Part shown: positions 25,752-53,968 of the stretch, in pieces | Numbering within the stretch: position 1 is the stretch's first letter | Layout: the number at the start of each line of letters is the position of its first letter | From: Nitrospinales bacterium | GTDB taxonomy: Bacteria > Nitrospinota > Nitrospinia > Nitrospinales > VA-1 | Direction of reading: 5' to 3' | Length of the DNA stretch: 58,592 nt | NCBI GenBank assembly: GCA_022450865.1 | Contig: JAKUOQ010000004.1 | Location: 1-58,592 of the forward strand | Notes under the pieces: generated by a model | The model's input: the letters and a program-made list of their open reading frames with translations, nothing else | Databases searched by the model: none | Told to the model about the DNA's origin: nothing | Position numbers and translations under genes: made by a program

Positions 25752-25780
25752 TTTTCCTTTACATCGCTTCACGTTGCAAC
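25752..25780 (-). promoter_or_regulatory. Candidate promoter for the ffs-dnaX transcript
   Basis: TTGCAA-17 nt-GAAAAT. Confidence 0.4.
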
Positions 25781-30000: not shown

Positions 30001-30205
30001 TCCCGATTAACCATAAAAATGTTTAAATTACTATTTGCTCCTTATTATTACCTTATAATGTAATGATTAACAAGATGTGCAGGTGAGCACTTTGTTTCAT
30101 AATTATTTCTTTGATGAAGTATAGATATTTTTATAATAAAATCCTTTTTGATAGTTTTTAAAAAATTATTCTCAAAACTTAAAATGTATAGGCCGGGCAA
30201 ACACA

Positions 30206-34292: not shown

Positions 34293-37200
34293 TTAGGCGC
34301 TGGGAGCTTTTTGGCAGGTTTCCTTCAATTCCCAGGCATTTCGATAGGAGTCGTCTTTTTTAATAACCTTTTCAAGAAGAGGGAGCGCCTTGGTGCATTT
34401 ATTTAGAAGGGTGAAAATTTCTGCCATCATAAATTGCAAATGAATTTCATCGGGATCGATTAGGTTATAACGGCCTCCATACATAAGAACTTCTTTTGCT
34501 TCTCCAAGCCCACGATAGCTTTTTACAATACTCTGCAATACCTTTAGATTCATTTGGTCTTCTTGCAGCAAGGGGAGGGAATATTCTAAAGATTTCAAGT
34601 ATTCCTTTTTTAAATTGTAGAACTCTGCAAGAGATCTTAGTAGAACTGGGTCTTGCGGATTTTTTTCTACTTCTTTTAATAGACTGACTAGCCCGATCTC
34701 TCTCATAACGGTACTAATTTGCTGAGGATCATATTTAGCGGTGTTTTGAAAGAAGATAAGAGCCTCTTCTTTTTTTCCTGACTCCAGCAGATTGTATCCC
34801 ATATAAAGGCTGGCGAAACTCAGATTAGGATTTTTTTCTAAAACCAATCGCAGAATTCTCATGCTTTGTTCATAGTTACCGATCTGGTAAAAACTGTGAG
34901 CTAAATTGAGCATGTACTTTAGATTGTCGGGTTCTTCTTCAATGAGTTGGGCCAAACGTTGCATTTGTTTTCGGTCAGCCTGCAGGTGGTATCGGAATAG
35001 GTCGTCATCCTCAACCAGAGTCATGGCTTTTAAAAGCTGGCCGCGGTTGCTATACATAACCCCGCGCTGGTAGAGGTCCATTGCATCATAATGGATTTTT
35101 AATTTTTGCCTATTTTCTTTTGATAGGTTCGTTATTTGCTTTGCGACATCATCAAACCTCGCGCGGTTGAATACATACCTTTCTTGCCCGGGTACCCCAA
35201 TCACGTTTCCCAGTTCTAAATAAAATTCAATGGCCGGGTGATTGTCAGTAATAAGAGGATAACCTTCCCCAAGTTTGACGACCTGTTCGTTGAGTAGCCA
35301 TATGTTGCTCAGAAAAGAAAAGATGTCTGGAATTTCAATATCCTTCAACGCTTTTTTAATTTCTGGTTCTTGCAGACGTTCGTTTAGTTTATTGAAATCA
35401 ATCTTAATGGGTTGATCAGAACCGATAATGAGAATTTCGTTAGCGACAGAAAGCCATCCCATGGTATAGGGGAAAACAGATTGAAAAGTTTTGAAGTGCA
35501 TGGCAACTTCTTCTTCTCCCTGGCTGTGCAGGGGGATCCATTGCGCTGAGATACCGCCAGGTTTAAGTTTCCTTTTCTGTAATTCATAATATTCCTTGGT
35601 ATACAGGTTGACCGTAAAGGCAGTGCGCGGGGGCGGAGGTTCTGAGGTAATGACGTCATAAAATTTATGGGTCGTTAACAAATGATTTCGACCATCCTGA
35701 ATCACAAAATTCACTTTAGGGTTGGACAGAACATCATGGTTTTGATCCGCAAACATTTTTCCTGCGTTAATAACACTGGAGGATAGTTCCAGGCTATCGA
35801 CGGTTTTTACTCGAGGGTGAATTCCTGCTGCACCTGTGGTCTGACCTGTTCCAAAACAGACTACTAGAACATCATCGGGTTTATCCACAAGAAGAATCGG
35901 AACATGCGCAAAAAGTTTCATATAACGAGTAGCGATCATGTTTGACGCCGACATGGAAATGCCATTGGTAATCAACCTTTTCGCAGATGGATCGAGCAAT
36001 CCGTATTCGTCTTTGAATACAGCAACGGTATCGGACAAGCCTTCTTCAAAATAAATCAGTTTGTTTATATTTCGTTTCCCGGCACTATCGCGCATGAAGA
36101 AAGAATTGAATAAATCATTTGGAATAGACATATTTATAAAAAGAATCAGAGCAACAAATACTATCGTCATGGCTTTTCTAATTGTGAGCGTCAAATAATC
36201 ACTGGTGCGAAACAAAAGAACCATGATAAATAAATTGATCGTTGCGAGTAGGGCAAGGCTGGCCTGGCTGCCAAAGTTAGGCAGGAAAAGAAAACCAGAA
36301 AAAAGAGAACCAAAAATAGCACCCATTGTATTCGCGGCATAAATCTGGCCGGTTGCCTGTCCGATATTTTCATGTTTGTTTGCTATTAGTTGAATAAGCA
36401 AAGGAAAACACATTCCGAGAAGTAAAGTGGGAACCAACATAAGAGCTGCTGAATCTCTAAAGTAGTTCCAGAAGGCCATAGCAGGATTGCCCAGGTTGTA
36501 TGCGTTCCAAGGGGGAGAAAGAATAGACTCTATTCCATAAATGGAGCCAATAACATAAATTCCGATTCCTCCTTGTAAAACCATAAGAATAGTGTGTGAG
36601 TTTTTAATTTTTGATGAAAATGGAATAAGTAAAAGGCTTCCCAGAAAAATACCCAATAAAAAGACAGTGAGCATCATACTGAATGAGTAAACCGTGCTGG
36701 CGATGCTGAATACCAAAAGGCGTGTCCATAAAACTTCATAAGCAAGAGCGGTGAAACCGCAAATGAAACTGATTCCCATCCAGAATTTTTGTTCGGGACT
36801 CCAACCCATCTTTGGAAGTCTGATTTTAGGAAGGCTAAATTTAACAATGCCCCCGTTTTCTTTATAAATACTCAGGGCACTAATGCCAATAATGAGGTTG
36901 CCAGTAGCGGCCATCAAAACTGTTTGTAATACTCCGAAAGCCCCCATCAAGAAAAATCCCGTAATCAAACAACCGAACGCGGCTCCCAGGGTGTTCAGCG
37001 CGTAAAGCAGGCTTACTTGTTTTCTTATGCGCTTGTCGTCAGTAACGCAATATTTGCTGATGAGAGGAAGGGTTGCGCCCATAAATGTTGTGGGTATTAA
37101 CATCAATGTGAAGGAAAAAACCACTCTCAAAAAATTTTGTAGAGCTGGAGATTCTGGAAGGAAGCTGTGGAACAAGGAGTAAACTTCAGCAAAATTAGCA

Positions 37201-37493
37201 AAAATAAGAGAAAGAAGGCCACCGCTTACAAATATCAATATTTCAATCCACCCGTACACCAAAAGCGCAGTCGAAGAAGAGTCTGTGCTATTTGCGGATA
37301 ATTTATCTATTGCATGGCCAAAGAGATAGCTGCCAAATCCCAGACCCGCCATAAATGCGGCAAGTACTACAGAGACTGAAAAAACGGTGTGCCCAAAAAC
37401 AAGGGTGAGCATTCGAGTCCATACGATTTCATAAGTCAGAGCTGTAATGCCTGATAAGAAGAATAAAAAATAGACTATGGGAGAACGTTGCAT
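34293..37493 (-). CDS. Fused multi-TM / spermidine-synthase-like / TPR protein
   Basis: Duplicated YEIVWTR/YEVLWTR and YALNT/YAANT TM halves; DGRNHL, YDVITSEPP, QWIPL, TDNHP; TPR tail. Confidence 0.85.
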   Translation of the reverse strand: MQRSPIVYFLFFLSGITALTYEIVWTRMLTLVFGHTVFSVSVVLAAFMAGLGFGSYLFGHAIDKLSANSTDSSSTALLVYGWIEILIFVSGGLLSLIFANFAEVYSLFHSFLPESPALQNFLRVVFSFTLMLIPTTFMGATLPLISKYCVTDDKRIRKQVSLLYALNTLGAAFGCLITGFFLMGAFGVLQTVLMAATGNLIIGISALSIYKENGGIVKFSLPKIRLPKMGWSPEQKFWMGISFICGFTALAYEVLWTRLLVFSIASTVYSFSMMLTVFLLGIFLGSLLLIPFSSKIKNSHTILMVLQGGIGIYVIGSIYGIESILSPPWNAYNLGNPAMAFWNYFRDSAALMLVPTLLLGMCFPLLIQLIANKHENIGQATGQIYAANTMGAIFGSLFSGFLFLPNFGSQASLALLATINLFIMVLLFRTSDYLTLTIRKAMTIVFVALILFINMSIPNDLFNSFFMRDSAGKRNINKLIYFEEGLSDTVAVFKDEYGLLDPSAKRLITNGISMSASNMIATRYMKLFAHVPILLVDKPDDVLVVCFGTGQTTGAAGIHPRVKTVDSLELSSSVINAGKMFADQNHDVLSNPKVNFVIQDGRNHLLTTHKFYDVITSEPPPPRTAFTVNLYTKEYYELQKRKLKPGGISAQWIPLHSQGEEEVAMHFKTFQSVFPYTMGWLSVANEILIIGSDQPIKIDFNKLNERLQEPEIKKALKDIEIPDIFSFLSNIWLLNEQVVKLGEGYPLITDNHPAIEFYLELGNVIGVPGQERYVFNRARFDDVAKQITNLSKENRQKLKIHYDAMDLYQRGVMYSNRGQLLKAMTLVEDDDLFRYHLQADRKQMQRLAQLIEEEPDNLKYMLNLAHSFYQIGNYEQSMRILRLVLEKNPNLSFASLYMGYNLLESGKKEEALIFFQNTAKYDPQQISTVMREIGLVSLLKEVEKNPQDPVLLRSLAEFYNLKKEYLKSLEYSLPLLQEDQMNLKVLQSIVKSYRGLGEAKEVLMYGGRYNLIDPDEIHLQFMMAEIFTLLNKCTKALPLLEKVIKKDDSYRNAWELKETCQKAPSA

Positions 37494-37689: not shown

Positions 37690-38520
37690 GTGGGGACTCA
37701 AGAAATAAAGATTACGGATGCGGACCACCCTTACGCCAAAGAAAATGGGGTCGTTTGGGCTGAAGAAGCCTGGGAACGTGTGAAACATGCTCCCGAATTT
37801 GTTCGTCCAGGTATCCGGAAGCTTATGGTTCAGCGTTGTGTCAAACGGGGTTATAAAATAGTCACATCCGATTATCTTACAGAAATCCGTAACGAGTCCA
37901 TGATGTTGGTTTCCAAGCGGGTCAAGGGTTTTGGATTTGAAGAGTTAACGATGGATGCCTTCGATGTAGCTAAGGAAAAAATGCGGGAAAGTCCTCGTAA
38001 GGTTGAAGTGATTGAAGAGATCGAGGATTTTCTCTCAATGCGCACAGAGAAAAAAGACGATATTGTAGAAAAATTTAAGAATTATATGGAAGTAACTCCC
38101 ACCTCAGGTGTTCCCTGGAGCAAAGAAGCCAAGGAGAAGATGGAAAAGGTGCCTCCCTTTGTCCTTGGTATGGCCAAGCAAACCATAGAAGGTCGAGCTA
38201 GAGAAAGAGGCGACAAAATGATCACTCCCGATATAATTGATGAAGTATTTACCAACATCATGCCGTCCTCTGCAAAACAAGCCATGGGCATGGAAGTGAC
38301 AGAAGAAGACCTCAAACAAGATGAGCAAATCGAAAAACAAAAGGAAGAACCCGTTCAGCTATCCATGAAATGGGAAGATGATGCGCTGGATAAAGTATCT
38401 CGTATTCCTATTCCTTTTATCCGTAGCATGGCTGTGAAGCGGATTGAGCAAGAAGTGGTAAAGGCTGGCGAAGAAGTTGTTACGATGGATTTGTTTGAAA
38501 AATACCGGTTTACTTTTTAG
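37690..38520 (+). CDS. Protein with three PCP_red-like repeats
   Basis: Three W..EA......P.F.R-type units (WAEEA, WSKEA, WEDDA). Confidence 0.75.
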   Translation: MGTQEIKITDADHPYAKENGVVWAEEAWERVKHAPEFVRPGIRKLMVQRCVKRGYKIVTSDYLTEIRNESMMLVSKRVKGFGFEELTMDAFDVAKEKMRESPRKVEVIEEIEDFLSMRTEKKDDIVEKFKNYMEVTPTSGVPWSKEAKEKMEKVPPFVLGMAKQTIEGRARERGDKMITPDIIDEVFTNIMPSSAKQAMGMEVTEEDLKQDEQIEKQKEEPVQLSMKWEDDALDKVSRIPIPFIRSMAVKRIEQEVVKAGEEVVTMDLFEKYRFTF

Positions 38521-39131
38521 ACAGGTGTTTCCGTTTGATCTCCCTTTCCTGAGGCTAGCTTTTGAAGTTGACTCCAGAGTTCCTTTCTTCCCAGATGATT
38601 CTTACTAGAGTAGGTCACAGCTGCAAGGGCGTTTTCCCCCATAAATGCAGATTTAATTATTTTAGTTTGCTTGCTTCGCTCCACTCCCGATAATTTATCC
38701 GATTTGGTTATAACCAGAATATAATTTCGGTCAAGGTCTTCTAGCCATTCTTTTAAAGTTATATCGAGTTCTGTGGGTTTGCGCCGAATGTCGACAATGA
38801 ACACTATTGCCATCAAAGGTTCGCGGTTAATAAGATATTCCTCGATCATTTGTTTCCATTTTTTTTGAAGAGCCGGGGTGACTCGTGCAAACCCATAGCC
38901 AGGAAGGTCAGCAAACATCAATTTTTCATTAATTCTGAAAAAATTTATTTCTCTGGTTTTACCAGGTGTAGAGCTGATGCGAACAAGCTTTTTTCGATTT
39001 AAAAGAGATCGAATCAGTGAAGATTTTCCGACATTCGATCTGCCAACAAAGGCAAACTCAGGGAAAGCCTCTTTAGGATATTGTTTTGAGGAAACAGCGC
39101 CGGTCACAAACTCCGTGTTTATTACTTTCAT
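38517..39131 (-). CDS. engB: Ribosome biogenesis GTPase YihA/YsxC
   Basis: GRSNVGKSS, PGKT, DLPGYG, TKSD. Confidence 0.96.
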   Translation of the reverse strand: MKVINTEFVTGAVSSKQYPKEAFPEFAFVGRSNVGKSSLIRSLLNRKKLVRISSTPGKTREINFFRINEKLMFADLPGYGFARVTPALQKKWKQMIEEYLINREPLMAIVFIVDIRRKPTELDITLKEWLEDLDRNYILVITKSDKLSGVERSKQTKIIKSAFMGENALAAVTYSSKNHLGRKELWSQLQKLASGKGDQTETPV

Positions 39132-39230
39132 GGACGTATTTTAGTCAAACTACTATTTCTCAAACTTACAAATCTTAGGGTTCATTTACAAAATATTATA
39201 ACAAAAATTAAAATAGTTTTTAAAAACTAC

Positions 39231-39698
39231 TTATAGAGCTTCGCACTGGCATAACTCGCGAATATAACGGACAAGTTCATGGATGGTAGAATCGTTCAGA
39301 GTGTTTCCCCATGCTGGCATACAGGGTGCTCGCCCAACAGATAATCCGCCAAACTTAATGGCTTCAAAAAATTGCTCATCGGTTCGGGTCTCTAAGTATT
39401 CTGCCTTGGTATGATTTCTAGGCGGCACGGTTAAGAATTTTGCATTGATACCATCTCCCTTACCTTTGATTCCATGACATTGGGCGCAATACCATTGATA
39501 GGTTTCACGAGTTTTTGCAGTTACAACAATGGGTTCGGGAGTTACCTCATTACTCAGTTCAAAGGTTTGTGACTCTGTTTTGAGTGGAGGTTTTGGTGTT
39601 ATATTTTTTTCGGTCTTTTGTTCACCACATCCTGATACCCCTATTACGAGCATTAGGATCCCATAATTAAAAATAGATTTTAGTGAAGATTTGATCAT
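39231..39698 (-). CDS. Monoheme cytochrome c lipoprotein
   Basis: VSG-C lipobox, CAQCH, distal Met in CMPAW, C-terminal CQC. Confidence 0.88.
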   Translation of the reverse strand: MIKSSLKSIFNYGILMLVIGVSGCGEQKTEKNITPKPPLKTESQTFELSNEVTPEPIVVTAKTRETYQWYCAQCHGIKGKGDGINAKFLTVPPRNHTKAEYLETRTDEQFFEAIKFGGLSVGRAPCMPAWGNTLNDSTIHELVRYIRELCQCEAL

Positions 39699-39701
39699 AG
39701 C

Positions 39702-40355
39702 TTATCTTAAGTTTTCTTTTTTTAGTGTCATGATGAATTTTGTAAATCGTAAGCGGGTTTCATTATCCATTTTATAAACTGGCATACGACTTTTATTAGA
39801 AAATATTTTTGGGTTTTTAAGCCAGTTTGCCACCCAACTCTCCTTCAACCGATTTCCCGCATTAACCAATGAGGGACCAGAAATTCCACCGCGGGGTTTA
39901 CCGGCTAGATTTAAACTTTGATGGCAGGAAATACAACTGAACGTACGTTCGAATTCGTATTTGGTTTTAGCTATTTGGCCTTTAGTTAAAGGATTAATTT
40001 GTTCTTCAGATAAACCCGGTAGAGTCATTGCCATCAATTCCTGAGTAATATTAACCGCATCGTTTTTATTAAGAATAGGATGTTGTTGTAGGTTTTGTAG
40101 TCCCCCTTTTAGAAAATTTGGACTATTGATAGTCCCAGTCTTTCGGAGGGTCACAGGATTTTGAAGATATTCCTCTAACCAGGCACTTTGAAACTTATTT
40201 CCTGCATAGAACAGATCCGGTCCTTTTTTCTCCTTCCCCACTTTAGATAGTCGATGGCAGGCAGAACAATTTTTTTCTTCGATCAAGGAACCGTACGAAA
40301 ATTGCGGACTATAAAGAACCCATCCGCTAATTAGAAGATAAAAGATTTTTTTCAT
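39702..40355 (-). CDS. Diheme cytochrome c
   Basis: Signal peptide; CSACH..GPDL and CISCH..GPSL..MP domains. Confidence 0.88.
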   Translation of the reverse strand: MKKIFYLLISGWVLYSPQFSYGSLIEEKNCSACHRLSKVGKEKKGPDLFYAGNKFQSAWLEEYLQNPVTLRKTGTINSPNFLKGGLQNLQQHPILNKNDAVNITQELMAMTLPGLSEEQINPLTKGQIAKTKYEFERTFSCISCHQSLNLAGKPRGGISGPSLVNAGNRLKESWVANWLKNPKIFSNKSRMPVYKMDNETRLRFTKFIMTLKKENLR

Positions 40356-43105
40356 AATGGATTCGTTTCATCAGGTATAGGTAAGGATTCAGGCTTTTTT
40401 TCGGTTTCCTGAAAAATATCGTAGGAAAACTCAATAATTCCCTCTTTTTTTTTATCCTGCGGTAGCTCTGTCGTCAAATCACTATCTCCCTCCATTATAG
40501 GCTCTGGCCGCGGTTTTGGTTTTAAATTTATAGGTGGTTTGTGTGCCTCGTTTGGTATTTCTATTTCGACAAATCGGTTTTTCTCAACATCGTAGAAAAG
40601 ATCTTCGCGTGGTTGCGATTCTCCTAAATTGTTATCACGAATATGATGTTTAATGTCATAAGGGAATTCTCTCCGACTCAATAGTCTAGAAAATTTTAAT
40701 TCTCTCAAATTGAGGGAACGAAATGCTCGATACCGGTTTGAAGGTTTCTGCAAAGCAGTGATCTCATTTTTATTTAGAAAACGCGATTTGTCTTGCGGAA
40801 AGAGGGTTTGTAATGCTTGCCCATTAGGGTCTATGCCTTGTTTGAGTTGGAAGTTCTTGTCAACCTGATTACTCTGTTTCAATCTGGAGAAAAATTGTCC
40901 AGCATTTTGAATGGATATTTTTAGGGAATCACCAAGACCGACCGATAAAGAGTTTTGATGACAGTTTTCACAGGAACGAACTGTTTTTCGGATTGTGTGG
41001 GGTGAATAATCTGTCCAAATCAACCCGGCAGAATTGTTAAGTGTTAAGGGAGGCTCTGCCCTTTTTAGGGGAAGTCCTGATGTGCCGGTTTGGTCGGTAA
41101 TAAAATATTGATAGCGAGGTTTTATTATAGAGTACTTGCCACGCGAGTTTTTACCCATAATCATTTCTGACCATCCGGAATCAGAAAACAGGGACCACCA
41201 ATATTCATTTATTGTATCGGCTTTAATTTTCTTTGGTAGTGATTTAGCGGTCAACCAATCAAGCATTCCGGGTTTTTCATTAGAGGGGTCCGCGGGGAAA
41301 CGCATTGGATCTGATAGGTTCCAGTTTCCCCATTTTCTAGGAGCGAAAACTTTTTCTCGTATAACATGCATACCCCAATCTATTGCTGCCCAACGGGCAT
41401 GGCAGGTCGAGCATTCCATTTTTTGCATATGTTTTGGAATCTGGTGTGCGATAGAAGGTTTAAAGTTTTTGAGTAAGGGAATAATATGTTTCTTTCCTGT
41501 TATCTTGGAATACAAAACCCAGTTCTTTTTAATCTTTTTAATATGCGGCATTGGTGAGCCACTTGAATTAACCAAAACGGTATCCCCTGCCCTGACTTTT
41601 TTCTTGAGGTTAGGGTTGAGATCGTTACGTGCTAATAATTTTTTTGCGTTCAGGTCTGACTCGATTAACAAGTATTCTTCAGGAGTTTTTTCCTGGGTGC
41701 CATGGCAATCGATACAGCGGATTTGTACTCCTGATTGGAGTTGATCTGGTTCTATTTCAGGTTTTATTTCTTCGCCAATATGACAGTCGATGCAGTGCAT
41801 CCCTTTTTCGCGATGGATATCAGGGACGAGAAACTCGTGATCTTTACCGTATAGAACAGGTTTTTCTGCATTAATTTGAATGGGTGTTTCCATAGGCCGT
41901 GATGGTTTTGCAAACAGACCTTCGAATTCTTGACCCACACCGTTATTGTTGTGGCAATGTTCGCATTGAACGCTAGGGACAGCGACCGTGAACTTATGGA
42001 GCAGGGGATAGCCACGTGGATTATTCAAAGAATTTTCTGCGAATTTTCTGGTAAAACGATTTTGTTTTTTATTTTTACTTTGAACTTTTTGTATGGCCCT
42101 ATCGTGAGATAATGAGACTCCGTCGTTCGAGTAAATCATGTGACAGGAAGAACAACCTGATGCCCTGTAATCTCCAGGGCGATGCGGACTTTCCGAACCA
42201 ATATGGCAACGCAGGCATTTTGTTCGAAGAAACCTGTCTACGGCATGACCTTCTGTCACAGAGGGGAAGGCTTGCTCGTTGTCATCCGCTTTTAAAGAAA
42301 CGGGAATTTCATCGATAGGCTGAGCACCCCAACCAAATCGGGTGATATTGATGGTTCTTTTAGCGGTAAACATGAGAGACCGTTCCACCTTGTTAACATG
42401 GTTTTCATGGCATTTCCCACAGAATCGGGGAGCGTTTTTTGCTGAAGATGGATTGGCAACAAGGCCTGTATGAGCTCTAGGTAATGAGTTGGATCGCCTG
42501 TTGCCACCATGGCAACGAACACATGAGAAACGGTGGTTTTTGCTGATCCGTTCAATTCCTTGGTGGCAGGTATAGCATCCCCCTCTTCTTTCTAAATATT
42601 CTATTTCTCCATAAACATCTTTAATTGAAAAATTCGATTCTTTGTAGAAATTCTCAATAAACTTATTGGAATCTCCATAGGATTGAAAATTTACTCCATC
42701 CAAAGTGGTACCCGGTTGTAGGACTTTTTCCGTATTTTTCTGGAACCCCCTCACACGAAAAAAAGGGTCTTCAAAATCGGAAGCATCAATTTGAACCTTT
42801 GGAAGCGGAGAGGGTACCTCCACCATTTCTTTTATTTTTAAATTTGTCTCAGGCTTGGGAACAATTTCTACCTCTTCAATTTTTACATCTTCTAAATTGG
42901 ATTCTGGTTTTAGGAAGAAATCTAGTGTCTCAGACGATTCTTTTTCAGTCCGAGTTCTAATTGATTCATCACCATTATTGTCGTCAAAAAAGTCATTAAA
43001 ATTTTTTTCATTTGTCACTTGACCTACAGAATAGGAGGGGAAAGTGCCTAGACAGAATCCTCCAGTAAGAATCAGCGATAGAATAATTTGTGATAATTTG
43101 TTCAC
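40352..43105 (-). CDS. Decaheme cytochrome c (917 aa)
   Basis: Signal peptide; CYTCH, CVRCH, CGKCH, CLRCH, CSSCH, CEHCH, CIDCH x2, CSTCH, CENCH. Confidence 0.9.
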   Translation of the reverse strand: MNKLSQIILSLILTGGFCLGTFPSYSVGQVTNEKNFNDFFDDNNGDESIRTRTEKESSETLDFFLKPESNLEDVKIEEVEIVPKPETNLKIKEMVEVPSPLPKVQIDASDFEDPFFRVRGFQKNTEKVLQPGTTLDGVNFQSYGDSNKFIENFYKESNFSIKDVYGEIEYLERRGGCYTCHQGIERISKNHRFSCVRCHGGNRRSNSLPRAHTGLVANPSSAKNAPRFCGKCHENHVNKVERSLMFTAKRTINITRFGWGAQPIDEIPVSLKADDNEQAFPSVTEGHAVDRFLRTKCLRCHIGSESPHRPGDYRASGCSSCHMIYSNDGVSLSHDRAIQKVQSKNKKQNRFTRKFAENSLNNPRGYPLLHKFTVAVPSVQCEHCHNNNGVGQEFEGLFAKPSRPMETPIQINAEKPVLYGKDHEFLVPDIHREKGMHCIDCHIGEEIKPEIEPDQLQSGVQIRCIDCHGTQEKTPEEYLLIESDLNAKKLLARNDLNPNLKKKVRAGDTVLVNSSGSPMPHIKKIKKNWVLYSKITGKKHIIPLLKNFKPSIAHQIPKHMQKMECSTCHARWAAIDWGMHVIREKVFAPRKWGNWNLSDPMRFPADPSNEKPGMLDWLTAKSLPKKIKADTINEYWWSLFSDSGWSEMIMGKNSRGKYSIIKPRYQYFITDQTGTSGLPLKRAEPPLTLNNSAGLIWTDYSPHTIRKTVRSCENCHQNSLSVGLGDSLKISIQNAGQFFSRLKQSNQVDKNFQLKQGIDPNGQALQTLFPQDKSRFLNKNEITALQKPSNRYRAFRSLNLRELKFSRLLSRREFPYDIKHHIRDNNLGESQPREDLFYDVEKNRFVEIEIPNEAHKPPINLKPKPRPEPIMEGDSDLTTELPQDKKKEGIIEFSYDIFQETEKKPESLPIPDETNPL

Positions 43106-45447
43106 GGCTGAATTTGCCTTGAATTTAATATTTGTTCCCGCAATTGACGATGCTCAAGCGTGCTTGCGAAGGCATAACTTTTCTTAATGTCTTGGTAAAT
43201 ACGGTCGCCATATCGATCGTGGCAGGGAATACAATTACCTACCCTCAAAATTCGTATTATCTCTTTTTGGTTAAAGGGTCTTGCTTTGAGCTGATGACTC
43301 CCTGCAAGAACTTCTCCTCGTATTGAGACTTTTGCCTGAGGATCAAACACTGATGCTTGGGTCTTTTCGTCTAATCGATTTAATGGAACAAGCGAATCAT
43401 TTTTTCCGGTATTGTTTGCTCCAATTTTCAAGTCGCCTTTTCCTAAACCTAAAGTCTCGGGAGATAAATGGCAACTCTCGCAGGAGCGTACTTTAGTGCC
43501 TGTAGAATGAGGATTAAGTGAATATGCTAGATTTGATCCCGAAGAGGTATCGGGATTTGTAAAATGCCATTTTTGATATTTTCCTCGGTGTTGTCCTATA
43601 GATCCCAATGCTAATATTGGATTACCTTTCTCGTCCAGCATGGAAAAATGTCTTTCGGGTTGCGCAAACATAGGGGCGACTTTTCCACGGGGTCCGATCA
43701 TAAGGTAGGGTTGCTGAATTTTTATGGGAGTCTTTTCTGAAGTTTTTAACTCGACCTGTCCTAATTTCATGGATGCATGGCAACTCTGGCATTCCACTAT
43801 TGATTGGGAGTGGCATGCAGTACATTCTAAACGAGATTGATGTTGGGGAATAAAATGGATCTGTTTGTTTCGAAGTAGAGGAATATTATAAACACGGCCA
43901 CTTCGCTTTCCGATCGTAACCATTTTCCCATTTTGTACTTTAACGTTAGTCATGCGCTTTTTTCTTTTGGAAACAGCCATCCAGTCTCCAACAGAGTTTG
44001 GTTTGCCTTTATAATGTTTGCTTAGTCTAATGACCGCATCGTCTAGTTCTGTAACTTTCGATATCATGGGATAGGTACTGTCATTTCCATGACAGGTTTC
44101 GCAACGAATTTCCACAGCTTGATGTTGTTTTGAATAGAGATTTCCGTCTCCCATGATATCCCTTTGTGTGTGGCAGTCGATGCAGTCCAAACCGCGAGCG
44201 GTATGAACATCGATCTGAACATTTCCCTTTCCAGTAAAAAGCGATAGTTCTTCTTCCTCGGCAGACTTGTTATCCTCTTTTTGGGATTCCACAGTAAGTA
44301 ATTCTTCATTGTTCATCATTGCAGAAAACCCTTCGCTCACTTGTTGCTGTTCAACCTCCTCCTCCTGTTGCTGTAGGGTTTCTTCTGGCATATTTTTAGC
44401 TTCTTCATTTTGATTAATTGGCCCTACTATAATATTTTTAACTGGGGAAGGTTCATTGCCCAAAGTTTGTATAGAAAACCTTTGATGGCATTGAACGCAA
44501 ATTTTTCGTTTGGGCAAGGCTTGGATCTGATGAAGTTTTGCATGGCCTGGTTGCGTTTTGGAAATGGTCGGGTCATTGCCTTCATAGAGGCCCGTTTTCG
44601 AATAAGCAAAATGACAAGCAGCGCAACCCTGAGATCGGTATTGGCCTGGCGGTGGTGGAGAATCAATATGGCATTGAAAACACTTCTGGCGTAAAAGACG
44701 ATCACTGGGATGTTTAGAAATTGGTTGAATAGTATTTTTGTCAGATTCAGGGATATCTAAATAAGAAAAGTAGGGGAGTTTGTCCAGTTTTTCCAAGGCA
44801 CCCCATTCATGCGGTATATTTCCATCTTTATCTGAAATAGCCCTCTTTGCATAGCGTGCGGTCTTTTTACTTTGTCCAGCCCATTGGTAACGCAGACCGG
44901 AAATCATTCCGGCCAAAGTGTTCATCATAGACTTATTTAGCCGTTGAATATGGTTTCGGTCTTCGCGAATATGACCGGAGTGACAATAAAGTTGTCCGCA
45001 GGACTGCTCCACTACACTGAGGCTCGACGGGTTCCGTTTTCCCGTCCCCGCCTGAGGATCATAAATCAATGTTGCATGAGCTTGGTTTTTATCTACCGAT
45101 TCTGGTTCGCCACCATGGCAAATAGCGCATCCGAATTCAGGGGGATGAGATGAACTGACACTAGAAATGCCATCGTGACAAGTAATGCAGCGTTCTACTG
45201 TACGATTTTTGTAGCTGGATATTTTCACCCAAGGGTAATCCGGTAAGATTGCAGTGATCCGCATTTCCTTAATATGAGGTTCCTGAGTTCTCCAAAAATA
45301 GGCCGTTTCATAGTCGCTTGCCTTGTCTGCGTTCGCTTGAAAGAATTGGCCCTGCCAAAAAATCCAGTCTTTTTCTTGAGCGAACACAGAGCAGACCCCC
45401 ATTAGGGTAATGAATAAAACCGTCAGCCCCTTTTTGAAAGTGAACAC
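43102..45447 (-). CDS. Multiheme cytochrome c with 11 CXXCH + 1 CX4CH (781 aa)
   Basis: Signal peptide; CITCH, CAICH, CGQLYCH, CFQCH, CAACH, CVQCH, CIDCH, CETCH, CTACH, CQSCH, CESCH, CIPCH. Confidence 0.9.
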   Translation of the reverse strand: MFTFKKGLTVLFITLMGVCSVFAQEKDWIFWQGQFFQANADKASDYETAYFWRTQEPHIKEMRITAILPDYPWVKISSYKNRTVERCITCHDGISSVSSSHPPEFGCAICHGGEPESVDKNQAHATLIYDPQAGTGKRNPSSLSVVEQSCGQLYCHSGHIREDRNHIQRLNKSMMNTLAGMISGLRYQWAGQSKKTARYAKRAISDKDGNIPHEWGALEKLDKLPYFSYLDIPESDKNTIQPISKHPSDRLLRQKCFQCHIDSPPPPGQYRSQGCAACHFAYSKTGLYEGNDPTISKTQPGHAKLHQIQALPKRKICVQCHQRFSIQTLGNEPSPVKNIIVGPINQNEEAKNMPEETLQQQEEEVEQQQVSEGFSAMMNNEELLTVESQKEDNKSAEEEELSLFTGKGNVQIDVHTARGLDCIDCHTQRDIMGDGNLYSKQHQAVEIRCETCHGNDSTYPMISKVTELDDAVIRLSKHYKGKPNSVGDWMAVSKRKKRMTNVKVQNGKMVTIGKRSGRVYNIPLLRNKQIHFIPQHQSRLECTACHSQSIVECQSCHASMKLGQVELKTSEKTPIKIQQPYLMIGPRGKVAPMFAQPERHFSMLDEKGNPILALGSIGQHRGKYQKWHFTNPDTSSGSNLAYSLNPHSTGTKVRSCESCHLSPETLGLGKGDLKIGANNTGKNDSLVPLNRLDEKTQASVFDPQAKVSIRGEVLAGSHQLKARPFNQKEIIRILRVGNCIPCHDRYGDRIYQDIKKSYAFASTLEHRQLREQILNSRQIQP

Positions 45448-45702
45448 AGTAGTTTGCTGTGAAGTGAGCGAGAAGTTAAGAAATCAACCAGACCGCACAA
45501 ACGAATCAGGTGGGTGAATCGTGTCAAATGTAAACGTTGTTCAGATAACTTTTTAATTCATCAAAATAGTTTAGAATTCTATCTGATAAATTTTTCTTCG
45601 TTACCAGGTCAACAGTAGCTCCCAACACCTATTGGTATGGATCTATAACCACCCCTAAGCCTTTTATGAAACAACTCAGGGTGCGGAATTTCATTAAAGG
45701 GT

Positions 45703-46206
45703 TCAATAAATAGGATTATGAAAATAATATAAGGCGTCATCTCCTGGAGTGATGCTGTAATCAGGCAAGCTAGAACAATGTTCAAGTGTTATTTTCCAAC
45801 TAGAACCTTCTTTGACAAAACTATAATTACAGACGCTGTGCTGACGCTCGTCGTTGTCAACAGATTTGGAAGTAACGCTTGCGATTTCATCAACCAGTAC
45901 ATAGCCCACCTTGTTGCCAGCATGCCCAGAGAGAACTTGACGCTGTACCTGACATTTAATACCACGGAAGTCAGCCATCATTTGCTTATAGGCCTTTACC
46001 CTGTTTTCTAATAGGGCACGCTTGTCGTCTTCCATGATAACTCGGTCTTTACCATAAAAACCGAGAAGCTTTTCTGGTTGAGTACAAGCGATGCCATCCA
46101 TTTTATTTAAGATATTGGCATACACATCCGTATCCGCAGCCAAGGCGTTGTTATTGATTACCAGGGACATAATGAAAACCATCCCGGTGAATAAGAAGCG
46201 CTTCAT
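45703..46206 (-). CDS. Secreted NTF2/SnoaL-like protein
   Basis: Signal peptide ALA-AD; C-terminal FVKEGSSWKITLEHCS strand typical of the NTF2 fold; four Cys. Confidence 0.65.
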   Translation of the reverse strand: MKRFLFTGMVFIMSLVINNNALAADTDVYANILNKMDGIACTQPEKLLGFYGKDRVIMEDDKRALLENRVKAYKQMMADFRGIKCQVQRQVLSGHAGNKVGYVLVDEIASVTSKSVDNDERQHSVCNYSFVKEGSSWKITLEHCSSLPDYSITPGDDALYYFHNPIY

Positions 46207-46279
46207 TTTAAAGTTTCTCCAGAAAAAAATTAAAAAGGTCAATATGCTCTAATTTAAACCACTAAAAAAGTGAGATAAA

Positions 46280-48454
46280 TCAGGGGAATTTGTGTAAATA
46301 AATTTCTACAGTTTCGCCATCTTGGGCCCATCCGAAATTTCCAGTTCCCGCAAAAGTGGAAATGATTCCGTTTGCATCCACTTTCCTGATCCGGTTATTT
46401 CCCATGTCTGTAATATACATATTGTTTTTAGAATCAAATGCAATAGCCAAGGGACTTTTAAGCATGGCTTTAGTTGCCGGACCGCCATCTCCAGAATAAC
46501 CCTGATAGCCTCTGCCAGCTACTTTTACTATTTTTCCGTCACTAGTCACTTTTCTAATCATGTTTGAATTCATTCCTACAATATGAAGCTCTCCTTTTGG
46601 ACTGACTTTTAAATAGTCCATGTTGCGGATGCTTGCTTTCAACGCAGGGCCTCCATCACCAGCATTATCATGTTTGCCATTTCCTGCAATAGTTGAAACG
46701 ATACCCTTTGTGTCAATCTTTCGAATTAAATTGTTGGCACCATCTGCGATATACAGGTTTCCTTCTTTATCTGTAGCCAATGCACATGGGTCGCGAAATG
46801 CCGCTTCGCTTGCCGGGCCTCCATCTCCATAAAATCCGGACTCACCCGTTCCAGCTATGGTGGTGACATTGCCTTTAGTATCTATTTTTCGGATCTGATG
46901 ATTGAGCCTGTCAGAAATAAACATATTACCTTTTTGATCGAAAGCGAAATCTGAAAAAGTAGTAATCGTAGCAAGCTCTCCGGTTTGTACCTTACCCTTG
47001 TATTTGCTTTTCGATATCGACTCCAAGTAACTGGGGGTCACCGTGTCTAGAAATTTTCGCATGATCCCTTTTTCATCAATTTTTCGAATCAAGCTCACAA
47101 ATCCGCTAGGACTAATGATAAATATTTCTCCTTTATTGTTCAGCTTCAAAGAGGTGGCACCATAAATGGAGGCTTCTATGGCTGGGAGCCCGTCCCCAAT
47201 ATTTCCTCTGATACCGTTTCCGACAATGGTGTGAATAATGCCCTCGGGAGAAATTTTGCGAATGCGATAGTTTCCCTTATCAGAAACAATCACATTATCT
47301 TTATTATCAACTGTGATTCCATGAGGGAAACTCAAAGTGGCTCCTGTCGCAGGTCCGCCGTCTCCAGCAAACATTTTATTGCCATTACCTGCGATGGTTT
47401 CTACGCCGCCTCTTTTTAAGTTAATACTGCGAATACGGTAATGCGATCGATCAATTACCAGTAAATTCCCTTCAGGGTTTAAGGCTACGCCAAAAGGAAG
47501 GTGAAGGTTAGTCTCGTGTGCTACTTCGGAATCTCCGTTGTAGTCTTGTTTTCCAGTTCCCGCAACAGTGGTGATCATTCCTTGTCGATCCACTGCACGG
47601 ATACGGTTATTTTCTCGGTCAGCAATATAAAGGGTGCCTTGATCATCGACTACGACACCTGTTGGCCCGGCAATACTGGCTCTATAGGCAGGTCCGTTAT
47701 CGCCCATCATAAAATAACCACCATCACCTGCCACGGTGGTGATGATTCCTTGCGTATTGACCTTGCGGACCCGGTTATTACCGCGATCTGCTATATATAA
47801 ATTTCCTTTTCTATCGAAAGCGATTCCAAAGGGTTTGTCCAGAGTAGCTTGCAGGGCGGGTCCGGAATCACCTTTAAAGCCTTCTTGCCCGTTTCCCGCA
47901 TAGGTACGGATATTGCCATTGGAGTCGATCGTACGGATGCGTTCGTTGGACCGATCTGAAAAATATAAATTACCTTTTTTGTCAAAAGCAATTCCAGATG
48001 GATGATTTAATTGTGCTTTGGTAGCAGGCCCCTTATCACCACTAAAACCAGCAGTCCCTGTTCCCGCAATGGTACTTATCGTTCCTCGGGTATCTACTTT
48101 ACGGATACGATGATTATTTCTGTCCGCGATATATAGGTTTCCGCTCTTATCAAAAGCCAGTCCAGCAGGTACATTCAATCTAGCTTCAATGGCCTTGCCG
48201 CCATCACCACTGAAACCGGAAGAACCGTTTCCTGCGTAGGTAGTCATATTACCCTTGAGATCAATACGACTGATAATATTATTGTCACGCATGGCAATAT
48301 AAACATTGCCTCTTTTATCCACAGCGATTCCATCCACCAGAGAAACTTCTGTTTTAGTGGCTGAAAGAACTTTAGCCAAAACCTCACTATCCAGGAAGAA
48401 ACTTCCTAGAAAAGAAGTTAGGATTGCCAATAAGAAAAAATGTTTTTTTAACAT
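46280..48454 (-). CDS. Secreted NHL-repeat (teneurin-like) beta-propeller protein
   Basis: Signal peptide; about 12 repeats of GDGGPA..A....P.G.A.D..GN.YIAD..N.RIRK. Confidence 0.88.
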   Translation of the reverse strand: MLKKHFFLLAILTSFLGSFFLDSEVLAKVLSATKTEVSLVDGIAVDKRGNVYIAMRDNNIISRIDLKGNMTTYAGNGSSGFSGDGGKAIEARLNVPAGLAFDKSGNLYIADRNNHRIRKVDTRGTISTIAGTGTAGFSGDKGPATKAQLNHPSGIAFDKKGNLYFSDRSNERIRTIDSNGNIRTYAGNGQEGFKGDSGPALQATLDKPFGIAFDRKGNLYIADRGNNRVRKVNTQGIITTVAGDGGYFMMGDNGPAYRASIAGPTGVVVDDQGTLYIADRENNRIRAVDRQGMITTVAGTGKQDYNGDSEVAHETNLHLPFGVALNPEGNLLVIDRSHYRIRSINLKRGGVETIAGNGNKMFAGDGGPATGATLSFPHGITVDNKDNVIVSDKGNYRIRKISPEGIIHTIVGNGIRGNIGDGLPAIEASIYGATSLKLNNKGEIFIISPSGFVSLIRKIDEKGIMRKFLDTVTPSYLESISKSKYKGKVQTGELATITTFSDFAFDQKGNMFISDRLNHQIRKIDTKGNVTTIAGTGESGFYGDGGPASEAAFRDPCALATDKEGNLYIADGANNLIRKIDTKGIVSTIAGNGKHDNAGDGGPALKASIRNMDYLKVSPKGELHIVGMNSNMIRKVTSDGKIVKVAGRGYQGYSGDGGPATKAMLKSPLAIAFDSKNNMYITDMGNNRIRKVDANGIISTFAGTGNFGWAQDGETVEIYLHKFP

Positions 48455-48590
48455 GTTAAAAACCTCTTCGTGGACCATAGTAAAAAAATAAAAAACTACC
48501 CCTTAAATCCCATCCAACTTAAATGAAATTCATCAGGGATTAATTGAATTGATTCAGTAATCAAACCTTAAATGTTTTATAAAGTAGATA

Positions 48591-50026: not shown

Positions 50027-50298
50027 AATTTTTTGATCAGAACATTTGATGAATTGAAAGGCTGAATTTCAAATTTAAACCCTGAAAGATGAGTTTTTCC
50101 TCTCGTGGGTTGGCCCCTATGAAATTAAATGCTTTGCCAGATAATCTAATCGGTTTGTATCTGGGTCGTTTATTGCAAATATAAGAAATGGAAGCTAACA
50201 TACCCTAGAATTTACCGCAACCGCCGCTTCAATGCACAAGGATAATAGAAAAGTTGAAAAATATCTCTAAAAATTCGATAATCTCCGAATCCAAGCAA

Positions 50299-50643
50299 AT
50301 GACAGATTCCTCGCGAAGGTTCAAACATGCAGGATATGGATTCCTCTTGCTGAATCTGATTTATCTGGCTTTAGCTATCTTTTTTATTCCCCCTTTTAAT
50401 ATTGGTTTGACAACCTTACTCTCACTTTTGGCGTTTGTCCTGCTATTGGGGGTTCTCACATATTATCTTTTGCAAGAGAAAAAGTTGCTGGCACAATTTC
50501 TTGCGTTTATCTATGGAGCCCGTTCTGTATTTACTGCATACTCCTTTTTTGCTGGAGACACCTTTCAGGCTGTACCATATTTTTTGCCTTGTCTTTTCAT
50601 CACGTTTTATCTTCTCGGACGCGCAGCTTGGAATTGGCCCTGA
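50299..50643 (+). CDS. Hypothetical four-TM membrane protein
   Basis: Four hydrophobic segments; TGATG overlap with the next gene; start 50299 or 50254. Confidence 0.7.
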   Translation: MTDSSRRFKHAGYGFLLLNLIYLALAIFFIPPFNIGLTTLLSLLAFVLLLGVLTYYLLQEKKLLAQFLAFIYGARSVFTAYSFFAGDTFQAVPYFLPCLFITFYLLGRAAWNWP

Positions 50644-51755
50644 TGAATAACTCTTCTTCTATATTTACTAGATCGCAACCCCGATTGCCCTTGGTTACTG
50701 AATCAGGAAAAAAGTATTCTGGGCTGGAAAATTCTAAATCGCCTGAGCTATGCCAGCGAGTCACTATTTTTTTTGATTACCTAAATGAACAGATAGGATT
50801 TCCAAAAACAGATTTGGGTCTAGAAAATCAGGTTTTTTTTAATTTGTTATTACAATCTGCATACCCAGAAATAATGATCGATCTCGCAGATCTTATTTAT
50901 GTTCAACATGAACGACCTGCTGTTTATTTAAATTTTGATCATATTCATATGAATCTTAAAAAAGACCGGGTGGTTCTTACGGAATCAATGGATCAGATCA
51001 ATAAAAAATTTGCAGTCCTTTTCCAGGAATTGGTAAATACTATCAAAGATAGCCCAATCTTATTCAGCGATACCCGAATGATTCGGTTGTTGAGTGAGAG
51101 TTATAGTATTTATCTTTTCCAGACAGAAAATTTTCCATGGGATAATCCTATGGAAATGATTCCCACCGATTTAAAAAACTCAATCATGGATGTTGCAACA
51201 GGTCTCGCCGGTTTCCGTTTAATTCATGACTGGCCCGAGAATTACCCAAAATTGATTCTTACGGACAATTTACCCTTTATCATTATGGGGTTGACTCACT
51301 ACGTGAAACTTTCTGGGAAAACCAATATAGAGATTTTAAATATAGATTTTCCAGATGGACCTCTTGGAAAACGTTGCGGTTGTATTCTTGCAAATAAATT
51401 TTTACACCATTTGCAAAGAAGTGAACGGAAAAAATTTTTACAATGGGCAATTGAGGCTTTGGATACTGATGGAATGTTATTAATTCTCGATACTGATCTG
51501 GAATATCAGATCTTACGGCGTGCGCAAAACCAGGAATACTGCGAAAAACTCATAGATGGATATAAGGAAACCCTTGTTGAAATTGAAGAGAATTTTTGCG
51601 AAACCTTAATCCAAGATGTGAGACACGTTGGTTTCGATGTCTCACATTTTGACTTCCACGAATATGAAGATGAAACTGATGCCTACAGTCAGCGCCCCGG
51701 CGAAAACTTATCCATAAAATTCATAGGTCTTGAGATTATGGCCAATAAAGTTTGA
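50643..51755 (+). CDS. Hypothetical protein with class I SAM-methyltransferase-like C-terminal domain
   Basis: IMDVATGLAG (motif I-like), LILTD, ILANKFLHH, LDTDGMLLILD. Confidence 0.6.
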   Translation: MNNSSSIFTRSQPRLPLVTESGKKYSGLENSKSPELCQRVTIFFDYLNEQIGFPKTDLGLENQVFFNLLLQSAYPEIMIDLADLIYVQHERPAVYLNFDHIHMNLKKDRVVLTESMDQINKKFAVLFQELVNTIKDSPILFSDTRMIRLLSESYSIYLFQTENFPWDNPMEMIPTDLKNSIMDVATGLAGFRLIHDWPENYPKLILTDNLPFIIMGLTHYVKLSGKTNIEILNIDFPDGPLGKRCGCILANKFLHHLQRSERKKFLQWAIEALDTDGMLLILDTDLEYQILRRAQNQEYCEKLIDGYKETLVEIEENFCETLIQDVRHVGFDVSHFDFHEYEDETDAYSQRPGENLSIKFIGLEIMANKV

Positions 51756-53032: not shown

Positions 53033-53968
53033 ATGACAAATTTACCCAAAGCTTCGGGCCCGGTTTTTTCTAAAAATCACCTGATTAACCTCTATTACAT
53101 AAACGAGTTATACCAAAATATTGCTATAGAGGTTTCCAGCCGCCTAAAAGAAATCTATGGGCTTGATCTTTCCTTTACATCGGGGATCTGGGGAGGGACT
53201 TATTTAATCGCCAAGCCCAATGGGTTATCGCGTCGCCGAATATGGAGACTCTACTCTATAGTTAACTTGCCGCAGGACAGTTCCTTGGATAAACAAGAGA
53301 ATATGGAAAAGCTGGTTGCTATTTATACTGACGTTTATAAAGAGGCTTTTGCTCCATACCAAATTGCACTTGACTTGAAAATGTGGGGTGGCACATTACC
53401 CCATAGCAATAAGTCAAAACCCAGTCTGACCATGCATATGGAGGATGCAACGGAAAGAGTTCGATGGTTAAGAACATTTTTTGTGTGGAACAAGGTTCCG
53501 TGGGAAGAATCGATAATCAGCGATACGGTAAGAATTATTAAGGAATACAAACCCTTTTTTGATTTAACAAAAGGACCTGTAAAGAAAGACCCAAAGGATA
53601 TTAAATATCTTTTGCAAGACATTATTATCATTTATCGTACTATTGAAAATGCCTGTAGTAAAGATTTTCGAGAACACGCGTCGCCTATTATTGAGAGCAT
53701 GATGCAAGCATTTATGGAAGGTCTCCATGATCCTGAAAAAATAAACGAGCATTACCAGATGGTTTTTAATAATGCCCTGATTTATGGTTTTGAGGAGAGC
53801 TTAGGAGGGCCATTTAAAAAACAAGGTCTCGACATTAAGGCTATCGAAACTTGGCCAGTAGAAAAAATTAATTGGATTCCAGAGGAGTTAAAAGAAAAAC
53901 TCATCCCGCCTATTCAAAATATTTTTAAGGGATTTAGAAAAGAATTGAAAGCAGTTAGTGATTCCTAA
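53033..53968 (+). CDS. Hypothetical cytoplasmic protein
   Basis: 311-aa ORF with protein-like composition; no family recognised. Confidence 0.7.
   Translation: MTNLPKASGPVFSKNHLINLYYINELYQNIAIEVSSRLKEIYGLDLSFTSGIWGGTYLIAKPNGLSRRRIWRLYSIVNLPQDSSLDKQENMEKLVAIYTDVYKEAFAPYQIALDLKMWGGTLPHSNKSKPSLTMHMEDATERVRWLRTFFVWNKVPWEESIISDTVRIIKEYKPFFDLTKGPVKKDPKDIKYLLQDIIIIYRTIENACSKDFREHASPIIESMMQAFMEGLHDPEKINEHYQMVFNNALIYGFEESLGGPFKKQGLDIKAIETWPVEKINWIPEELKEKLIPPIQNIFKGFRKELKAVSDS

Follow-up and report, generated by a model that had tools for sequence, protein, structure and literature searches.

In Geobacter, the genes for the multiheme cytochromes ExtM (12 hemes) and ExtN (10 hemes) share a cluster with those for ExtO (Rieske protein), ExtP (cytochrome b), ExtQ (membrane protein), and ExtS (lipoprotein cytochrome), as described in PMC5877670. 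Nitrospina gracilis has a bc-like operon with an atypical octaheme cytochrome c that is shared with Kuenenia and M. oxyfera (PMC3578206, main text), and extra multiheme proteins on the Rieske/cytochrome b (R/b) complexes of anammox bacteria were proposed in PMC12954380 to run an exergonic half-reaction. The window analyzed here is a whole stretch of 58,592 nucleotides (nt), namely, contig JAKUOQ010000004.1 (positions 1 to 58,592, forward strand) of the Nitrospinales bacterium assembly GCA_022450865.1. It contains an operon of four c-type cytochrome genes (A to D) that joins three unexplained systems, the Geobacter Ext cluster, the anammox R/b complexes, and the Nitrospina bc-like operon, into one family. 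The operon is a variant of a known, biochemically uncharacterized kind of system.

Nitrospinales perform most of the nitrite oxidation in the ocean. To our knowledge, it is not known how their electrons pass from periplasmic nitrite oxidoreductase (NXR) to the oxidase or how they are driven uphill into the quinone pool via an odd R/b complex. A near-universal 25-heme module is an obvious candidate for the missing link in this electron transfer, and the iron that 25 hemes require is a relevant expense in mesopelagic water, where iron is scarce. The module was absent from the published models covered, with a single passing mention found in PMC11995701, where the role of Nitrospinaceae multiheme clusters was called unclear. 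No mention of a 12/10-heme cluster was found in the main text of the N. gracilis report (PMC3578206), its supplementary table lying outside the search, and no statement linking A to D to the R/b operon was found in the literature searched, which did not extend to subscription papers and supplements.

We favor, with a probability of roughly 0.55, the reading that A to D constitute the periplasmic multiheme partner of a b6f-like Rieske/cytochrome b/octaheme complex, the genes of which have become detached from the operon in Nitrospinales. The reading is drawn from matches to Ext protein families, candidate partners encoded on another contig of the same genome (C178), gene neighborhoods in other phyla, the tree of A and B homologues, homology between C and the octaheme protein, co-occurrence within the order, and the lack of a tie to NXR. 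The sequences show the gene content, heme sites, A/B paralogy, conservation, ExtM/ExtN homology, and linkage to Rieske/b6 genes in other phyla; from this evidence we infer that A to D are physically or functionally coupled to the Rieske protein and cytochrome b in Nitrospinales, and likewise the partners and the direction of electron flow considered below.

Operon structure and relationship to the Ext cytochromes

Genes A to D are codirectional on the minus strand of the window. Gene A (43102 to 45447) encodes an ExtM-like protein of 781 amino acids (aa) with 12 heme sites, gene B (40352 to 43105) a 917-aa protein in the ExtN position with 10 heme sites, gene C (39702 to 40355) a 217-aa diheme class I cytochrome c, and gene D (39231 to 39698) a 155-aa lipoprotein monoheme class I cytochrome c of the CBB3 type, giving 25 heme sites by motif count. 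Genes A and B overlap by GTGA (43102 to 43105), genes B and C overlap by ATGA (40352 to 40355), and a 3-nt gap (39699 to 39701) separates C from D. Judged by eye, all four proteins have signal-peptide-like N termini and are putatively exported. The start of A is ambiguous (45387 to 45447); many database homologues are 16 aa shorter, and one record begins at residue 21, with a signal peptide present only in the long form that starts with GTG at 45447 and no Shine-Dalgarno-like sequence before either candidate start.

The heme sites of A comprise 11 CxxCH motifs and one CxxxxCH motif (C150 to H156; minus strand, 44980 to 45000, residues 150 to 156), and B has 10 CxxCH motifs, including a plain CxxCH at the position aligned with the CxxxxCH of A. 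All 12 motifs of A were 100% conserved among 76 homologues from several phyla, including Geobacter-type proteins, and the CxxxxCH motif was invariant in both homologue alignments built. Across the 1.76-Mb genome, 51 open reading frames (ORFs) of at least 60 aa contained CxxCH, and the richest after A and B had six sites; given these counts and the conservation of the sites in A, the heme richness of A and B is not due to chance.

Proteins A and B are colinear paralogues (BLASTP, E = 3e-44; 26% identity over ~737 columns), with B lacking counterparts of hemes 10 and 12 of A. A first-pass annotation, made by a model from the DNA letters, had described four exported cytochromes with 12, 10, 2, and 1 hemes, the three junctions, a lipid-anchored monoheme protein, and the A/B paralogy, and all of these were confirmed. 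The motifs that it listed as common to A and B were also present, although the spacing from PH to VRSCE is five residues and not four. In a FastTree phylogeny of 42 A-like, B-like, and ExtN-position proteins, the B clade (support, 100) took in Desulfobacterota and Thermodesulfovibrionales and stood apart from the Geobacter ExtN-position proteins. Nitrospinales were sister to lineages with fused clusters, in which the A and B homologues adjoin Rieske and cytochrome b genes, in both the A clade and the B clade (supports, 96 and 99, respectively), which indicates that the A/B pair was inherited as a unit. The topology further indicates that the duplication is old, and a recent A/B duplication within Nitrospinae was ruled out by the tree.

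Compared to the NCBIfam equivalog model for ExtM (NF040943), A scored 288.6 bits (E = 8e-86) and B scored 176.4 bits (E = 8e-52), so that the ExtM resemblance suggested in the first-pass annotation was borne out below the equivalog level, the cutoff of 800 bits being reached by neither protein and exceeded by no match in the genome. The matches of A cover model positions 14 to 586 of 599, and its 12 heme sites are colinear with the model. Against the ExtN model (NF040967), B scored 65.2 bits and did not reach the cutoff of 200, having 10 hemes and 917 aa compared with ~415 aa. In the Geobacter Ext cluster, too, a 12-heme gene precedes a 10-heme gene; A and B are homologous to the products of these genes by hidden Markov model, and all 12 heme sites of A align with those of ExtM. 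Unlike ExtM, A has one CxxxxCH motif, where Geobacter-type proteins have 12 CxxCH motifs, and is ~160 aa longer, with a disordered linker; unlike the Geobacter ExtN proteins (~415 to 450 aa), B has 917 aa and belongs to a separate clade. The G. sulfurreducens extKLMNOPQS cluster (ExtM, GSU2935; ExtN, GSU2934) also goes by the name Cbc6.

The ExtN (415 positions) and ExtO (416 positions) models matched the same segment of B (residues 552 to 583) at the same model positions, with scores of 65.2 and 66 bits, respectively, and the literature describes ExtO as a 14-kDa Rieske protein; the two NCBIfam models may be redundant, or one of them may be mislabeled. By Pfam, A and B contain generic c3/c7 multiheme domains only. 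An exhaustive search retrieved 1017 representatives of the A family at an E value of ≤1e-3 and 115 at an E value of ≤1e-30, and a protein atlas gave the distribution of the family as Nitrospinota and Thermodesulfobacteriota.

Rieske/cytochrome b genes in the host genome and in other phyla

The window is one contig of a 1.76-Mb metagenome-assembled genome (MAG) that is 83% complete, with a contamination of 6%. The nearest protein and locus matches are from marine Nitrospinaceae/Nitrospina, a lineage that agrees with the chemolithotrophic host proposed earlier; the host differs from Geobacter in being an aerobic nitrite oxidizer. In this genome, Rieske is encoded once and cytochrome b twice. On contig C178, genes for a flavin adenine dinucleotide (FAD)/NAD oxidoreductase, a b6f-type Rieske protein, cytochrome b6, subunit IV, and a multiheme cytochrome c lie in one direction. 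Cytochrome b6 matched ExtP (267 bits; cutoff, 290), subunit IV matched ExtQ (57 bits), and the multiheme protein, which is cut by the contig end, matched ExtS (69 bits), with no ExtO match listed for the Rieske protein. As with the Geobacter Ext cluster, the genome therefore has a b6f-type Rieske protein in the ExtO position and ExtP-, ExtQ-, and ExtS-like proteins.

The multiheme protein is full length in two relatives (G073 and G024), where it is an octaheme protein of 888 to 926 aa. As in Kuenenia (Kustd1480-1485 and Kuste4569-4574), N. gracilis, and M. oxyfera, the locus pairs a b6-type cytochrome b, which is split, and subunit IV with an octaheme protein that replaces cytochrome f (PMC3578206 and PMC12954380). 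Protein C of the operon is homologous to repeats inside this octaheme protein (BLASTP, E = 1.4e-14 for G073 and 3.7e-13 for G024).

Several observations concern these loci themselves. The octaheme gene of the host is split over C178 (4 to 1947) and C180 (5159 to 6601), in pieces that overlap (residues 2 to 649 and 409 to 888 of the G073 protein), which points to an assembly break in the internal repeats or to a mixture of strains. The gene immediately before Rieske, in the same orientation (C178, 4356 to 5672, minus strand), encodes a 438-aa FAD/NAD(P) pyridine-nucleotide-disulfide oxidoreductase and keeps this position in G073 (51% identity) and G024 (33%). Anammox R/b complexes, too, have an NAD(P) oxidoreductase, of an Fe-S-containing type in contrast to the Pyr_redox_2 type found here (PMC12954380). 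The second cytochrome b is unsplit, with 337 aa and an ExtP score of 154 bits; its gene belongs to a stretch of contig C173 (24 to 2514, minus strand) that also encodes a 138-aa protein without a family assignment, a thioredoxin resembling ResA, and a (seleno)protein of the CYCXC family (NF041379; 117.6 bits; cutoff, 90).

The chief new evidence is the linkage of A homologues to R/b genes in other phyla. A scan of species-representative genomes, with a pattern from a nine-sequence alignment, yielded 80 loci, 24 of them in Nitrospinota and 56 in other phyla. B was present at 24/24 of the Nitrospinota loci, C at 21/24, and D at 19/24, the misses being on short contigs. Within flanks of ≤10 kb, a Rieske, cytochrome b, or subunit IV gene was near the A homologue at 39 of the 56 loci from other phyla, and several of the 17 without such a match are short contigs; the same 56 loci had 13 octaheme-like, 25 B-like, 10 D-like, and no C-like proteins. 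The nearest relatives of A outside Nitrospinota, at 32 to 34% identity (loci L067, L069-L075, and L083), belong to Desulfocapsa, Desulfobulbus, Desulfobulbia, a Desulfobacteraceae MAG, and a Thermodesulfovibrionales MAG. Their cluster order is Rieske, b6, subunit IV, octaheme, D-like, A, B, D-like, and tetraheme, with a c554-like tetraheme followed by a cupredoxin in Desulfocapsa. The two separate loci of Nitrospinales thus correspond to one gene cluster elsewhere. Geobacter-type loci had ExtM, ExtN, Rieske, b, subunit IV, and a tetraheme; Desulfarculales-type loci had A, B (620 to 680 aa), Rieske, and b; and at Syntrophales-type loci, A directly followed subunit IV.

The link to anammox-type bc complexes that the first-pass annotation had also suggested was supported both by the C178 gene set and by the contiguity of such genes with A and B in other phyla, where A and B directly follow an operon resembling those of the anammox and Nitrospina R/b complexes. 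The extra subunit of the anammox complexes is HAO-like, in contrast to the ExtM-like protein here, and A to D of Nitrospinales are, unlike the components of R/b complexes, encoded far from the complex. In comparison with the Geobacter Ext cluster, the operon is detached from the R/b genes, and only the ExtN-position paralogue B adjoins A.

Within the phylum, an A homologue (E ≤ 1e-10) was found in 96 of 120 genomes. These included 93 of the 101 Nitrospinales genomes of four families (f1 to f4), none of the 10 genomes of families f5 to f8, and, as weak matches, 2 of the 8 genomes of family f9. The octaheme protein was present in 86 of the 101 genomes of families f1 to f4. In a sample of 16 genomes spread over different genera of Nitrospinales, 15 kept the order A-B-C-D with heme counts of 11(+1)/10/2/1, and the remaining one (G091) had A and B only; a loss of gene order, named beforehand as evidence against a real four-gene system, was accordingly not seen. 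The label orphan had to be given up, since the operon is core to the order (93/101), its candidate partners are encoded on C178, and such genes are contiguous with A-B homologues elsewhere. The result comes close to a match with a known complex whose membrane subunits are encoded elsewhere, which the first-pass annotation had set out as the contrary outcome, with the difference that this complex is uncharacterized and the matches are below the equivalog level.

In the favored arrangement, the complex would be of the kind seen in the Geobacter ExtMNOPQS cluster and the anammox R/b complexes, its core made up of a Rieske protein, cytochrome b6 (split), subunit IV, and, standing in for cytochrome f, an octaheme cytochrome c. 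Electrons would be exchanged between, on one side, the Rieske cluster and the octaheme anchored in the membrane and, on the other, the small high-potential class I cytochromes C and D, of which C would be a paralogue of the diheme repeat of the octaheme and D would be tethered to the membrane by lipid. Electrons would pass from C and D to the A/B pair (12 plus 10 hemes) or be received from it, and A/B might distribute them to periplasmic partners on the nitrite oxidoreductase side and the cbb3 oxidase side or consume them at a catalytic heme. The module genes of Nitrospinales would have come apart from those of the membrane core.

Several findings weigh against this arrangement. The scores of A and B are far below the ExtM equivalog cutoff, and Ext-type and anammox R/b complexes are themselves biochemically uncharacterized, so that the proposed mode of working is based on gene context. 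The neighborhood survey used naive ORF calls and best BLASTP matches (E ≤ 1e-6) to the genes of the window and of C178 in the flanks searched, and the related genomes in it are not independent samples. No Rieske, b6, or subunit IV gene was found beside the operon at any of the 24 Nitrospinota loci (flanks of ≤10 kb), and in all five closed Nitrospinales genomes, the Rieske/b6 locus is 0.8 to 3 Mb from A-B-C-D. In family f5, the octaheme protein is present in 4/4 genomes and A in 0/4. One genome of the same family as the host (G054; 1.7 Mb; 97% complete) has NxrA at 97% identity and the octaheme protein, and neither A nor B was found in it; on an intact 31-kb contig, it keeps two genes that lie upstream of the operon in the window (for an NHL-repeat protein and a 179-aa protein), with no remnant of A to D detected downstream by tblastn. 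The presence of NxrA and the octaheme protein without A to D indicates that the operon is dispensable and is not an obligatory subunit. Lineages of this type offer a natural knockout for comparison.

With respect to nitrite oxidation, NxrA (E ≤ 1e-100) was found in 50 of the 101 genomes of the order and not in the host MAG. Many of the NxrA matches are cut by contig ends, and the gene is therefore poorly assembled, which makes the comparison of NxrA with the operon uninformative except in G054. No NxrA match was obtained in the two fused-cluster genomes searched, and 2 of 151 sampled Nitrospirota genomes had an A homologue (E ≤ 1e-20). These results, with those for G054 and family f5, indicate that the module is accessory to the R/b complex and is not tied to nitrite oxidation.

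The neighborhoods also bear on whether the module might be an extracellular or mineral (Fe/Mn) electron-transfer conduit, which we regard as very unlikely. Nitrospinaceae MAGs have clusters of at least three multiheme genes, with up to 12 hemes, for which extracellular electron transport was raised in PMC11995701; in Geobacter, extM and extN lie beside the ExtHIJKL porin-cytochrome genes (PMC5877670, cluster description); and a few A homologues bear the MtrC/MtrF domain family. Large periplasmic multiheme cytochromes in tandem are likewise a feature of the Mtr, Pcc, and ExtHIJKL conduits. Those conduits, however, have a porin nearby, and the nearest relatives of A and B tie these genes to an inner-membrane R/b complex. 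By Pfam, with 52 of the 59 window ORFs of ≥100 aa scanned, no Rieske, cytochrome b, NrfD/NapC, molybdoenzyme, or recognizable porin gene was found in the window, as the first-pass annotation had stated; no porin or beta-barrel gene was recognized by Pfam among the scanned ORFs, with unannotated ORFs remaining, and none occurred in the gene order conserved among the 16 genomes sampled. The operon also lacks the ExtHIJKL-like porin and rhodanese genes of the Geobacter cluster, and its small partners are a diheme cytochrome and a lipoprotein monoheme cytochrome. D is a lipoprotein that could be anchored in either membrane.

Fold and possible catalysis

The AlphaFold2 (AF2) model of A had a mean predicted local distance difference test (pLDDT) score of 77.7 and a predicted template modeling score of 0.77; the model of B was weaker (pLDDT, 59.7). 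Foldseek returned no match of the A model in the PDB at an E value of ≤0.001. With an exhaustive aligner and 48,161 chains, the only chain with a Z score of ≥2, for A and for B alike, was the octaheme tetrathionate reductase (OTR) of Shewanella oneidensis (1sp3). The alignment with A had a Z score of 5.6 and a root mean square deviation (RMSD) of 5.0 over 267 residues, and that with B had a Z score of 5.0 and an RMSD of 5.0 over 291 of 436 residues, Z scores of 5 to 6 being below the level that the tool treats as safe. A phmmer search of B against PDB sequences gave two weak cytochrome matches only (E = 0.014 and 0.056). A profile of 29 A homologues matched the pentaheme nitrite reductase NrfA of Escherichia coli (4wjy) weakly (E = 1.5e-6; 30 bits), with hemes 5 to 8 of A aligned to hemes 2 to 5 of NrfA, that is, four consecutive motifs that include a CIDCH motif in common. 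Since two models and one profile agree, a distant placement of A and B in the NrfA/OTR superfamily is plausible. A and B differ from OTR and NrfA in having 12 and 10 hemes, compared with 8 or 5, and in lacking CxxCK, and the similarity is weak. In OTR, the active heme has a Lys ligand.

This placement raises the main alternative, which we consider unlikely, that A/B works on its own as a periplasmic oxidoreductase of the NrfA/OTR/HAO superfamily, with hydroxylamine/NO or a small oxyanion of N, S, or Se as its substrate, C and D as dedicated carriers, and a link to the Rieske protein and cytochrome b only via the common cytochrome c pool. Such an enzyme would account for the NrfA profile match and for OTR as the sole structural neighbor of both models. 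In A, there are ~10 conserved nonmotif His/Met residues for 12 hemes, in addition to Lys514 (97% conserved), which in heme-free models is no more than a lead. The Geobacter Ext cluster has been genetically implicated in selenite and tellurite reduction (PMC5877670), and the dispensability of the operon in G054 is as expected of an accessory enzyme. However, a motif search of all four proteins detected no CxxCK in A to D, the structural similarities are below the safe level, and the Foldseek search of A returned nothing. B has as many conserved nonmotif His/Met candidates (~10) as hemes (10), a five-coordinate heme would be conjectural in heme-free models, and the evidence points to no particular substrate. 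An enzyme of this kind would overlap with the favored reading if it were the electron sink of the R/b complex, a role proposed for anammox R/b complexes (PMC12954380).

A related proposal, distinctly speculative in our view, is that A/B forms a catalytic module of the OTR/NrfA superfamily, through which the Rieske/b6/octaheme complex would have an exergonic half-reaction of its own in the periplasm, like the one proposed for the HAO-like subunit of anammox R/b complexes. If so, quinol oxidation could be bifurcated toward a low-potential acceptor, which would represent an unseen reductant route for the main nitrite oxidizers of the ocean and a new class of enzyme in the ExtM family. A choice between a heme wire and a redox enzyme, as framed in the first-pass annotation, is still the right pair of options.

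Both models have long disordered segments. In A, an acidic, Gln-rich linker (minus strand, 44218 to 44481; residues 323 to 410; pLDDT, <50) separates two six-heme halves, and the matches to homologues fall in two stretches, ~83 to 325 and 410 to 777. In B, a disordered, low-complexity N-terminal extension (minus strand, 42596 to 43045; residues 21 to 170; pLDDT, <50) and a disordered Lys/Glu/Pro-rich C-terminal tail (minus strand, 40355 to 40675; residues 811 to 917; pLDDT, <50) were predicted, and B ranges from 818 to 1261 aa among Nitrospinales. These linkers and tails, together with the large number of hemes and the dispensability of the operon in the streamlined genome G054, might suit a periplasmic electron store, buffer, or protective sink with no fixed partner, in effect a capacitor of ~25 hemes under fluctuating nitrite and oxygen. 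That function seems hardly probable, because it makes no specific prediction and leaves the R/b linkage in other phyla unexplained; the strict conservation of heme sites, gene order, and two class I cytochromes fits a defined pathway better.

Small cytochromes, expression, and neighboring genes

The domains of C are, by Pfam, those of a class I cytochrome c, SoxX/FixO-like, with two heme sites. D has a CBB3-type domain (Pfam), an invariant Met127-Pro, a C-terminal CxC, and a lipobox, V-S-G-C24, read from its sequence (minus strand, 39627 to 39638). The lipobox Cys was kept in 14/14 Nitrospinales orthologues and in 0/5 D-like proteins of other phyla. A complex prediction with full-length A and D gave no answer (score, 0.00) and is uninformative either way. 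Separately, D and its relatives have an invariant His96 and an invariant Cys150-x-Cys152 (19/19 sequences), and the Nitrospinales D proteins have Cys125 close to the Met127 heme ligand; these cysteines and His96 could form a disulfide or a metal site.

Logan contigs from four marine RNA-library runs (three studies) contained pieces of all four genes at ≥95% identity. Contigs spanned the A/B junction and the B/C junction, and flanking genes were covered too. These contigs are at most a weak hint of expression of the operon, as they show neither transcription, strand, nor level. A promoter and terminator scan of positions 38400 to 46500 yielded fewer sites than shuffled sequence and was uninformative.

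Upstream of the operon, on the minus strand, are genes for an exported 732-aa NHL-repeat propeller (46280 to 48478) and the 179-aa protein of no family (45703 to 46242). The two genes adjoin the operon in 10 of the 16 genomes and at 16 of the 24 Nitrospinota loci, and they are not beside A-B in other phyla. Some relatives have extra genes in two places, where they separate the 179-aa gene from A and D from EngB; on visual inspection, their products resemble a GlgX enzyme, a small Hpt protein, and a DUF1015 protein. The inserted genes, the NHL gene, and the 179-aa gene were treated as lying outside the system. The remaining scanned ORFs of the window were housekeeping genes by Pfam, and ORFs without a Pfam match lay at 11256 to 12101, 25715 to 26026, 30048 to 30416, 45703 to 46242, 50254 to 50643, 50589 to 51755, and 53033 to 53968. 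The product of an ORF at 34293 to 37493 (minus strand) is a polytopic membrane protein of 1066 aa that has a spermidine-synthase-like domain and, at the C terminus, TPR repeats. The ORF at 37690 to 38520 (plus strand) encodes a 276-aa protein in which the C-terminal domain of the protochlorophyllide reductase 57-kD subunit (PF08369) occurs three times and makes up the protein; the host is a nonphototroph, and the gene is kept beside EngB in close relatives.

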